In this document: piece after piece, positions 47,773 to 48,936 of the stretch
How positions within the stretch are numbered: position 1 is the stretch's first letter
How the letters are laid out: every line of letters starts with the position of its first letter
Source: Escherichia phage 92CQ
Sequence record: PV682554.1
DNA: 64,000 bases
Strand: one strand, 5' to 3'
Notes under the pieces: generated by a model
Databases searched by the model: none
Seen by the model: only the letters and a program-made list of their open reading frames with translations
Told to the model about the DNA's origin: nothing
Position numbers and translations under genes: made by a program

Positions 47773-47847
47773 AATGATAATCATTCTTATTTATAGCTGA
47801 TTATTTATGCAATAAACTGCATAATGCAATAATGATAATCATTCTTA
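47773..47847. promoter_or_regulatory. two Fur-box-like sites (AATGATAATCATTCTTA x2)
   Basis: Copies at about 47773-47789 and 47831-47847. Confidence 0.45.
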
Positions 47848-48203
47848 ACTTATGACCATCTAACCTATAAAATAATAAGTTATCTAACTAAATTAAAGCT
47901 AATTATTTCACCTTTATTTATAACTTACTGTTACTATCTCATTGATAACCTTATATTAAACAACAATAACTAATATAAATCATTACTAAGCTAAATATAA
48001 TCTATCTAACCTTTAAAACTATAACTATAATCTATCGAATTGTTGCACAAAGTAACTATTAAATTGTTAGTAACATTACTAAATAACTAGTATCCTATCT
48101 ATTTATGATCTAACCTTTATCTTCCTATCTATTACCTAAGTAATCATTTCATACATAATCATTTCATACAACAACTATAACAAGAAATATAATTCGCAAG
48201 CGT

Positions 48204-48381
48204 ATCATTAGCAGCCTATGCCGGACACATAGGCGGCTAATAATAACGCAACTACACACCCCACATAATAACCATCACCGATAGTTATTATTTGTGCTTA
48301 TGTAGCTTGCAACAATTGCAAGCGCAACAATATACAAGGTATATTGTATCCCTTACATTGTTGCGGTGCGTTATTATTAGC
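48204..48381. other. nested inverted-repeat element (structured RNA or DNA cruciform candidate)
   Basis: 13-bp IR TTAGCAGCCTATG/CATAGGCGGCTAA; perfect 15-bp IR GCTAATAATAACGCA/TGCGTTATTATTAGC 116 bp apart, enclosing GCTTGCAA-CAA-TTGCAAGC and CGCAACAAT...ATTGTTGCG. Confidence 0.5.
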
Positions 48382-48720
48382 TAATGTTTGGAACATTGGC
48401 TATAATATAAGCTACATATAATAAGCTATTCAATAATAAACATCGTGAACAATGACATGAGTGAACAATGACACTGATGATCATAATGCGCCACCTTCCA
48501 GGGGGCGCTATGTGAACACAAAGAAATCTTTCTTGTCAAGAAAAATATCACTACTATTGCGCAAAATTATTTATATCTGAATAGATGATTTTTCATACTA
48601 TTGCCCCTATACACTACCTCATTTGTTGCGTATCCCTATTTGTTGAGCCTATTCTCTTAAAAGCGCAATAAATCAGAATTATCTTGATTTTTAGTGCGTT
48701 TTATAGTATAGAAAATATGC

Positions 48721-48737
48721 AAATGATAATCATTATC
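48721..48737. promoter_or_regulatory. Fur-box-like site (AAATGATAATCATTATC)
   Basis: 15 contiguous positions identical to the 3' part of the Fur consensus. Confidence 0.5.
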
Positions 48738-48903
48738 AGCTATCTTCCACGGGTGGCACTATTTCACGCCAGATCATTTCATTTGGCAAGGTGTAGATAG
48801 ATGTTTAGAAATGCCAAGCCATTGATTTACTTAGAATTTATCTGTTTTGTTGTGAGTAGTGCCTTTCTTGCTCAGAAAATAATCAAAAGTCTTATAAGTC
48901 ATT

Positions 48904-48936
48904 GAATGATAATGCAAATGATAATAATTCTCATTG
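48904..48936. promoter_or_regulatory. Fur-box-like site (GAATGATAATGCAAATGATAATAATTCTCATT)
   Basis: Two GATAAT hexamers plus ATTCTCATT half-site shared with the 37.3 kb cluster. Confidence 0.4.

Follow-up and report, generated by a model that had tools for sequence, protein, structure and literature searches.

Phages of several kinds carry operators for regulators of their hosts. The promoters of lytic cyanophages contain sites for host transcription factors (NtcA and PhoB boxes), and a Fur box is present at stx1 on a temperate phage. A Fur box is also located upstream of sitABCD, a temperate cargo gene, on lambdoid coliphages (PMC6969025), and strong Fur sites have been reported in the cryptic prophage genes nohA, ynaE and ydfK of Qin and Rac (PMC2189734). 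Clustering of sites with a 6-bp spacing is characteristic of Fur (Chen et al., PMC2189734). The subject of this study is a group of four Fur-box-like sites in a gene-poor spacer of Escherichia phage 92CQ (sequence record PV682554.1), located within a stretch of 64,000 nucleotides that is referred to here as the window and to which positions refer unless stated otherwise. The existence of the group was confirmed and its reading as Fur operators is supported at the level of sequence. In a search of the literature on phi92/phAPEC8-like phages and T5, no account was found of strictly lytic phages with conserved clusters of several Fur boxes in their gene-poor hubs.

Results

Four Fur-like sites in a gene-poor spacer

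The window belongs to a strictly lytic phi92-like coliphage. The spacer and its flanks were 88-98% identical to about 50 genomes of Justusliebigvirus, a genus of phi92-like myoviruses of ~146 kb in the subfamily Stephanstirmvirinae, and the top match was Escherichia phage EC_OE_11 (98.2%). Parts of the spacer were also recognisable in Phapecoctavirus, in the phiWec group and in Klebsiella and Citrobacter relatives. Some GenBank records labelled as Campylobacter or Pseudomonas phages were ~94% identical to the coliphage spacer, and their host labels appear doubtful. The spacer extends from the phi92 gp248 homologue (47142-47525, plus strand) to the next plus-strand open reading frame (ORF), the start of which lies between 49238 and 49295. 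Its description as non-coding in the initial annotation was nearly right: no credible long ORF was found in 47526-49237, and careful annotations of relatives show a gene-free gap with a terminator, plus a repeat region in one record, but the spacer does contain a probable minus-strand RNA gene (48196-48388) and a tiny conserved ORF near 47580.

Sites were scored by the number of matches to the 19-bp Fur consensus GATAATGATAATCATTATC, and the 7-1-7 inverted repeat was taken as TGATAATnATTATCA. The following Fur-like sequences were located in the spacer, without assignment to a strand except for array 4:

47770-47788: Fur-like site 1, TTAAATGATAATCATTCTT, 14/19, with the palindromic core AATGATAATCATT at 47773-47785
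47828-47846: Fur-like site 2, AATAATGATAATCATTCTT, 16/19, covering the predicted start point of the candidate promoter P1 (see below)
48470: weak degenerate Fur-like copy, 14/19
48719-48737: Fur-like site 3, GCAAATGATAATCATTATC, 17/19, with a perfect 7-1-7 repeat, TGATAATCATTATCA, at 48724-48738
48902-48941, plus strand: Fur-like array 4, overlapping sites at 48908, 48914 and 48920 (14, 15 and 14 of 19) with 6-bp phasing

The sequence AATGATAATCATTCTTA does occur twice, at 47773-47789 and 47831-47847, and GAATGATAATGCAAATGATAATAATTCTCATT is present at 48904-48935, as had been noted. The position given for AAATGATAATCATTATC (48721-48737) was also correct, but the match there had been put at 15 contiguous consensus positions, and the site starting at 48719 has 17/19 matches, 16 of them contiguous. 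Besides the perfect copy in site 3, the 7-1-7 repeat was found with one mismatch at 48919-48933 and with two mismatches each at 47775-47789 and 47833-47847. The extended consensus of the phage sites is AAATGAkAATCATTmTCATTT.

The surroundings of the sites are also repeated. Site 3 is flanked by ATGCAA (48717-48722) and TATCTT (48741-48746) with 18 nt between them. Array 4 is preceded by a conserved TTGAAT (48902-48907) and ends in GATATT (48936-48941), which follows its ATGCAA (48912-48917) at a distance of 18 nt. A context of ATGCAA, core and TAT-containing hexamer about 18 nt further on is common to sites 2, 3 and 4, in register (repeat families D1 and D2).

Tests against chance

The spacer has a GC content of only 32% and Fur boxes are AT-rich palindromes, so the sites could in principle be a chance product of AT-rich, repeat-rich DNA. 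The claim that four sites in this interval would be unlikely by chance was nevertheless borne out by shuffles, Markov copies and permuted motifs. The 13-mer AATGATAATCATT has three exact copies in the window, all within the spacer, and with up to two mismatches it was matched 26 times in the window, compared with 6.2 +/- 2.9 times (largest value 15) in 100 dinucleotide shuffles. Eight sites in the window score at least 15/19, three of which are in the spacer and four in the cluster at 37.3 kb. First-order Markov copies of the spacer (n=5000) contained on average 0.043 sites of at least 15/19, and none of these composition-matched simulations (0/5000) reached the observed three. When permuted palindromic motifs of the same composition were used (n=3000), 0.3% reached three matches. 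Nothing comparable to the Fur match was obtained with the consensus sequences of six other regulators (Zur, PerR, LexA, CRP, ArgR and Fnr). The sites are moreover kept across genera and constrained within the genus, as described below, and an origin by chance or low complexity is accordingly ruled out for practical purposes, its probability being negligible.

Conservation across relatives

Thirteen genomes (Justusliebigvirus, Phapecoctavirus, the phiWec group, and Klebsiella and Citrobacter relatives) were anchored on an invariant hairpin, GCTTGCAAnnnTTGCAAGC. An IMG/VR protein scan together with a 17-mer scan yielded eight related loci, and GenBank phage records were used for the relatives. 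The order of the sites relative to the structured RNA element was identical in 13/13 genomes, at an inter-genus spacer identity of 65-80% that is alignable in blocks. At 390-535 bp to the left of the anchor hairpin, a site of at least 15/19 was present in 10 of the 11 relatives whose left flank was covered (site 1 of the window itself scores 14/19), and site 1 could be aligned in 12 genomes. To the right, the counterpart of site 3 (at least 14/19) was found at 320-470 bp in all 13 genomes, and an array of at least 14/19 was found at 505-725 bp in 11/13. Of the two exceptions to array 4, KP2025 has a weaker hexamer array at the homologous place and Citrobacter phage Tr1 has none there, its sites being located ~170 bp upstream. 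The GATATT that follows array 4 is invariant across genera, even in Tr1.

Substitutions in the sites exchange one Fur-compatible hexamer for another (GATAAT, GAGAAT, AATAAT and GCAAAT), as can be seen in the versions of array 4 in the window (GAATGATAATGCAAATGATAATAATTCTCATT), phiWec188 (GAATGCGAATGATAATGATAATTATTCTCATT) and FKP3 (GAATGATAATAATAATGAGAATGATTCTCATT). Within nine Justusliebigvirus genomes, 6 of the 88 positions in the four sites vary, compared with 322 of 1627 in the remaining spacer (odds ratio 0.30, Fisher p=0.0013). All nine genomes have an identical site 3, although variability within the spacer peaks in the 160 nt to its right (42% variable). Lack of conservation in relatives had been named as an outcome that would count against the sites; the check showed that their positions are kept across genera and that they are more constrained than their flanks.

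Fur-like sequences were also found further afield. A more distant IMG/VR contig of 148,567 bp has AATGATTATCATT-type sites in the equivalent non-coding DNA, with Fur-like GGTAATGAGAATCACTATC and GTTAATGATTATCATTGCG at 3600-3690 and 5820-5850 of that contig, in non-coding DNA on both sides of its gp248 homologue. In Klebsiella phage FKP3 (fetched locus 1940-2640), a 500-bp tandem duplication of the module with sites 3 and 4 creates extra Fur-like sites.

Two clusters in the genome

The cluster at 37.3 kb consists of site pairs with 6-bp spacing (37251/37257, 37274/37280 and 37303/37309). It has nothing in common with the spacer but the motifs (up to 24 nt, 92% identity). The half-site ATTCTCATT, which had been proposed to link the two clusters, is indeed shared by them. 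The genome-wide distribution was assessed in the complete genome of the relative vB_Eco_PATM (146,804 bp, assembled from six pieces). Ten sites in this genome score at least 15/19, and seven of them, including all four that score at least 16/19, are in two gene-poor regions, at 104.2 kb (equivalent to the 37.3 kb cluster of the window) and at 115.1-116.2 kb (equivalent to the spacer). The remaining three, each 15/19, are isolated and inside genes. Near-matches to the 7-1-7 motif showed the same distribution, with 8/10 in these two regions.

Several other elements were observed near the 37.3 kb cluster. A 67-bp tandem repeat (..GAAAATGAAAAGTTCAA..) with about three copies occupies 37029-37230, just upstream of the cluster; Tandem Repeats Finder gives two copies (37029-37159) and the third was read by eye. 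A near-consensus promoter, TTGACA-17-TATACT (37598-37626, minus strand), is directed towards the cluster. Within 37469-37650, about 130-180 nt are 70-85% identical in many rV5-like genera (phages of Klebsiella, Cronobacter, Salmonella, Erwinia and Pectobacterium) and are unannotated; this conserved DNA folds no better than shuffled sequences.

Comparison with E. coli Fur operators

Promoter regions of E. coli K-12 with footprinted or gel-shifted Fur sites were scored on the same 19-bp count:

fepA-fes operator: 13/19
fepD-entS operator: 16/19 and 15/19
fepB-entC operator: 15/19 and 15/19, the second site ~115 bp upstream of the phased trio
ryhB operator: 16/19 and 14/19
fhuA operator: 14/19 and 13/19

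Where an operator has two scores, its overlapping sites are offset by 6 bp, with the exception of the second fepB-entC site. As the E. coli operators score 13-16/19 and the phage sites 14, 16, 17 and 15/19, the phage sites equal or exceed real operators. The resemblance extends to the motifs. The ryhB operator (GACAATAATAATCATTCTCATT) contains the half-site ATTCTCATT and the fhuA operator (ATAATCATTCTCGTT) a near copy of it, the E. coli operators and phage sites share ATAATCATTCTC(A/G)TT, and the GCAAAT hexamer ahead of sites 3 and 4 also occurs in fepA-fes. BLAST matches between the ryhB promoter region and the window were confined to the Fur-like motifs (15/15 nt). The consensus score, the perfect 7-1-7 repeat and the 6-bp-phased array thus support the designation of the sites as Fur-box-like.

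When E. coli Fur was compared with 50,697 phage records by tblastn, 31 records matched, none of them from phages of this group, and a phage-encoded Fur was therefore rejected as the binder. The Fur of the host is then the only Fur-family protein available and would be the only known candidate for binding. Taken together, the sequence features make it probable that host Fur binds these sites.

Other connections to the iron regulon of the host were also considered. A recently captured host promoter was ruled out, as the module of sites 1 and 2 has no match in 5426 complete E. coli genomes; the region of sites 3 and 4 gave only short, weak matches in the same set. A RyhB-like small RNA downstream of the boxes was ruled out, as the phage resembles the operator part of the ryhB promoter and not the RNA. 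A link to a Fur-regulated receptor was likewise rejected, since published work on the receptors of relatives points to lipopolysaccharide, NfrB, YhaH and flagella, and not to TonB-dependent transporters.

Similar palindromes in T5-like phages

A search with the 37.3 kb cluster matched the T5-like phage Gostya9, whose large untranslated region (fetched locus 1150-1420) contains units of the type GGAATGAGAAyTATTCAAGAAGTGG arranged in tandem, next to perfect DnaA boxes. In T5 itself, the copies of 'direct repeat C' and palindromes E-I (AY587007, 9468-9637), located in the injection stop signal, contain ..TTAAATGAGAATCATTATCATTTGC.. and score 15-16/19; a 22-mer from this region, TAAATGAGAATCATTATCATTT, is identical to 37275-37296 of the window. 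With a 51-nt probe, paired palindromes were found in 295 phage records. The matches listed came for the most part from Stephanstirmvirinae and from T5-like phages that infect Escherichia, Salmonella, Klebsiella and Pectobacterium, and the majority of them were unannotated. The comparative study of this T5 region by Davison discusses the repeats and the DnaA boxes but not Fur (bioRxiv 10.1101/866236), and a full-text literature search for T5 with 'Fur box' returned nothing relevant.

A structured RNA and candidate promoters between the sites

Between Fur-like sites 2 and 3 the spacer probably encodes a multi-branched structured RNA, and promoter candidates were found at the RNA and at the sites:

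48196-48388, minus strand: structured RNA gene of ~190 nt, a 14-bp closing stem (GCUAAUAAUAACGC / GCGUUAUUAUUAGC) around two composite arms, followed by a 3' hairpin
48404-48433, minus strand: candidate promoter of the RNA, TTGAAT-18-TATATT, with a predicted start at ~48397, ~10 nt upstream of the 5' end of the RNA model
47797-47825, plus strand: candidate sigma-70-type promoter P1, CTGATT (47797-47802), 17 nt, CATAAT (47820-47825), predicted between sites 1 and 2

Variation in the spacer is lowest in the RNA region (4.9% variable sites), which was at least 95% identical in 55 records. RNAalifold on the 13 genomes gave -66.3 kcal/mol and 53 pairs (14 compensatory) for the minus strand and -44.2 kcal/mol and 39 pairs for the plus strand. 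With a common pair list, which had been predicted on the minus-strand alignment, 631/632 pair cells were canonical in the minus reading and 567/632 in the plus reading; G-U cells (64, at 11 pairs) occurred only in the minus reading. The single-sequence z-score was -7.6. The compensatory pairs and the minus-only G-U pairs point to an RNA of ~190 nt that would be transcribed leftwards, antisense to the flanking genes. No Rfam 15 family overlapped the RNA in a search of 36000-50500 at E up to 1, and a known RNA family was ruled out, the sole Rfam match in the spacer being a sub-threshold small nucleolar RNA that was taken as chance. A covariance model found a single copy of the RNA in the window, which ruled out a second copy near the 37.3 kb cluster.

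P1 overlaps a conserved inverted repeat, TTATGCA-N6-TGCATAA (47805-47824). Its pattern (nTGnTT / CATAAy, with a spacing of 17-18 nt) was kept in 11/12 aligned genomes, the most distant of which aligns loosely. Its position between sites 1 and 2 is a classical occlusion geometry. At sites 3 and 4, ATGCAA-N18-TATCTT/GATATT may represent promoters whose spacer would be filled by the Fur core, with the GATATT after array 4 as a possible -10 element.

Other features of the spacer and its neighbourhood

The remaining features of the spacer were as follows:

47541-47568, plus strand: intrinsic terminator closing the upstream phi92 gp248 homologue (terminator scan; annotated in the relative PATM)
47580-47732, plus strand: small ORF, N-terminal part ..KVNRSRYRANQGADE.., kept as a 22-amino-acid ORF in Phapecoctavirus relatives
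47850-48190, no strand: AT-rich tract with many short direct repeats (ATCTAAC.., TCCTATCTATT and two copies of TAATCATTTCATACA), the sequence of which is not kept between genera
48445-48508, no strand: two copies of GTGAACAATGACA, the degenerate Fur-like site (48470-48488) and a hairpin GCGCC..GGCGC (repeat families D2 and D14)
48633-48700, plus strand: block conserved across genera in the alignment, TGTTGAGC..TTCTCTTAAAAG..ATCTTGATTT, including a -35-like TTGATT (48684-48689)
48981-48992, plus strand: TCGCGTTAAGCA, identical in 13/14 sequences, with one substitution in phiWec188

The small ORF at the left edge of the spacer carries the motif (K/R)SRYRANQxAxE and, if coding, would account for the conserved block at 47538-47670. 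A module that consists of a Fur box, CTTCCAsGGG and CTTTCTTGyyMAGAAAA recurs in the spacer in three decaying copies (repeat families D2 and D8), the first of them being the segment 48445-48508. The start of TCGCGTTAAGCA lies 45 nt downstream of the start of GATATT (46 nt in one genome, inny), within a conserved 300-nt stretch (8.7% variable sites) that runs to the first ORF. RNAalifold detected no conserved fold around TCGCGTTAAGCA or downstream of array 4, and a conserved small RNA downstream of the array was ruled out on this basis; TCGCGTTAAGCA may be a protein-binding or processing site.

The 8-mer GGGGTGTG occurs four times in the 64 kb (expected 0.7), at 36844, 49059 and 49136 on the plus strand and 48255 on the minus strand, and every copy is close to a Fur cluster, either that of the spacer or that at 37.3 kb. 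The copies at 49059 and 49136 each form the beginning of a repeated unit, AAAGGGGTGTGT..AAATA..GGTATA. The inverted repeat TTGATAGGGAAATCCTATAC (49172-49192), which resembles an operator, lies a short distance ahead of the first ORF beyond the spacer and is kept in Phapecoctavirus.

On both sides the spacer is flanked by long runs of small plus-strand genes of unassigned function. All ten neighbouring proteins tested belonged to PHROG families of unknown function, except for a weak secondary match to the goF mRNA-metabolism modulator family. Among the genes of the phage are those for class I and class III ribonucleotide reductases.

Discussion

The analysis suggests that the phage reads or manipulates the iron signal of its host. 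The reading that we put forward, and to which we give about an even chance, is that the four sites are genuine operators of host Fur (Fur-Fe2+) in a conserved regulatory hub of the Stephanstirmvirinae, where they gate promoters. In an iron-replete cell, Fur dimers would sit on the sites and occlude weak sigma-70-type promoters, namely P1, which is flanked by sites 1 and 2, and the ATGCAA-N18-TATCTT/GATATT modules of sites 3 and 4. Loss of iron from Fur, or its dilution as phage genomes multiply, would release these promoters. Transcription from P1 would then run rightwards, antisense to the structured RNA, and that from the site-4 promoter would enter the conserved 300-nt leader that precedes the block of small genes downstream.

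A number of observations weigh against this model. None of these candidate promoters passes the threshold of a sigma-70 position weight matrix, and a generic promoter scan gave 15 hits compared with 14.5 in shuffles. Because the promoters are weak by consensus, promoter gating is put forward here by inference. Given the 42% variability of the 160 nt downstream of site 3, a promoter at that site, if real, has no conserved adjacent product, and there is no conserved RNA fold downstream of site 4 either. The sites of the 37.3 kb cluster are located between convergent genes and not upstream of an ORF. It is also not obviously advantageous for a lytic phage to be blocked by a repressor in ordinary, iron-replete hosts.

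The same operators might instead serve as a sponge that soaks up host Fur and does not regulate phage promoters. About 10-15 dimer sites per genome would titrate Fur as phage DNA replicates, and the host iron-uptake regulon would be derepressed, feeding iron-dependent enzymes such as the two classes of ribonucleotide reductase that the phage encodes. Titration of Fur by multicopy Fur boxes in vivo is the established basis of the Fur titration assay, which has been used for fragments discussed in PMC2189734. The packing of many strong sites into gene-poor DNA, the lack of a strong promoter or conserved product beside sites 1-3 and the changeable number of modules, as in the duplication of FKP3, would all fit such a role. 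The positions of the sites and their flanking elements (ATGCAA, GATATT and the TTATGCA inverted repeat) are kept, however, none of which a pure sponge needs, and there are only about eight strong sites per genome. We regard an exclusive sponge as unlikely, although gating and titration are not mutually exclusive. It is also conceivable, but quite unlikely, that the palindromes bind another protein with a specificity resembling that of Fur, either phage-encoded or from the host, such as an early-gene regulator, a replication initiator or a packaging factor. The extended phage consensus is longer and more regular than the minimal Fur box, the hub also contains iteron-like repeats and the unassigned invariant motifs TCGCGTTAAGCA, GGGGTGTG and TTGATAGGGAAATCCTA, and most neighbouring phage proteins are without a known function, which leaves room for such a protein. 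A shared host protein is nevertheless the simpler explanation for the presence of the same palindromes in unrelated T5-like phages, which share hosts and not the flanking genes that were compared. Furthermore, the variation between genomes follows Fur-compatible hexamers, the ATTCTCATT and GCAAAT variants are those of real E. coli operators, and no Fur-family gene is present in these phages.

The parallel with T5 raises a different alternative, that the arrays are cis-acting structural DNA for entry, replication start or packaging, with or without Fur, and unrelated to iron-dependent transcription. The palindromes of T5 are inside an annotated injection stop signal, those of Gostya9 form a long tandem array beside DnaA boxes, both phage groups place their arrays in the largest untranslated region, and an AT-rich repeat tract adjoins the sites in the spacer. 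Against this, the DnaA box TTATCCACA is absent between 44131 and 50914 (up to one mismatch) and no switch in GC skew occurs at the spacer, where the skew merely tracks the direction of transcription; a DnaA-box replication origin was ruled out on these grounds. The spacer is internal in the records of phiWec188 and phiWec186, genomes described as ending in direct terminal repeats (PMC12695924), and is therefore probably not terminal. These records do not support the spacer as a physical genome end, and the several other records that begin inside it probably do so by convention. The T5 repeats themselves, moreover, have no known function. We consider a structural role quite unlikely.

If Fur does bind, a widely used group of therapeutic coliphages would couple part of its programme to the iron status of the host, which differs sharply between laboratory broth and sites of infection. 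The RNA gene without an Rfam match would gain its first regulatory context, flanked as it is by the sites, and the repeats of the T5 injection stop region, for which no function has been given in decades of description, could be explained. A broader proposal is that two unrelated virulent lineages, the Stephanstirmvirinae (phi92/phAPEC8-like) and the T5-like Demerecviridae, have each fixed Fur-operator arrays in the largest of their regions without genes so as to capture Fur, as an iron sensor or a sponge. This is rather doubtful at present. Under this proposal the captured Fur could be the iron sensor of a switch with the antisense transcript and the structured RNA, or it could be drawn into a sponge whose effect depends on copy number, so that the iron-uptake regulon of the host is derepressed with the build-up of phage DNA. 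If the proposal is true, the long-unexplained palindromes of the T5 injection stop signal are Fur boxes.

Comparison with known systems

With the Fur operators of E. coli, the phage sites share the consensus, the 7-1-7 core, the hexamer variants GAGAAT, GCAAAT and ATTCTC and the 6-bp overlap (PMC2189734). They differ in their location on a strictly lytic phage, where they do not precede an iron-uptake gene or a recognisable ORF; an overlap with a strong promoter is not evident and the DNA is not copied from the host. The Fur titration assay, in which multicopy boxes derepress fhuF::lacZ, resembles the situation expected once the phage replicates, with many strong Fur boxes per cell, but it is a laboratory artefact of plasmids.

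The T5 injection stop region is similar in that a lytic enterobacterial phage again has clustered Fur-like palindromes in its largest untranslated region, and these are conserved family-wide. T5 differs by its paired DnaA boxes (eight in T5-like phages) and by a terminal repeat at the boundary of first-step transfer; the spacer lacks DnaA boxes and is not supported as a terminal location. The two phages belong to different families with no flanking similarity in the comparisons made, and the T5 repeats are not called Fur boxes in the texts searched.

The NtcA and PhoB boxes of cyanophages are another case of a virulent phage that wires a nutrient-sensing regulator of the host into its own programme, but the regulator and the nutrient are different and the cyanophage sites precede identifiable phage genes. 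The Fur boxes of temperate phages and prophages are, like the sites described here, operators for host Fur on phage DNA. They are single operators before a cargo gene or another defined gene in a lysogen, integrated into the host regulon. In the phage of the window, a virulent 146-kb myovirus, two clusters of several sites each occupy gene-poor hubs instead, and these clusters are kept across the subfamily.

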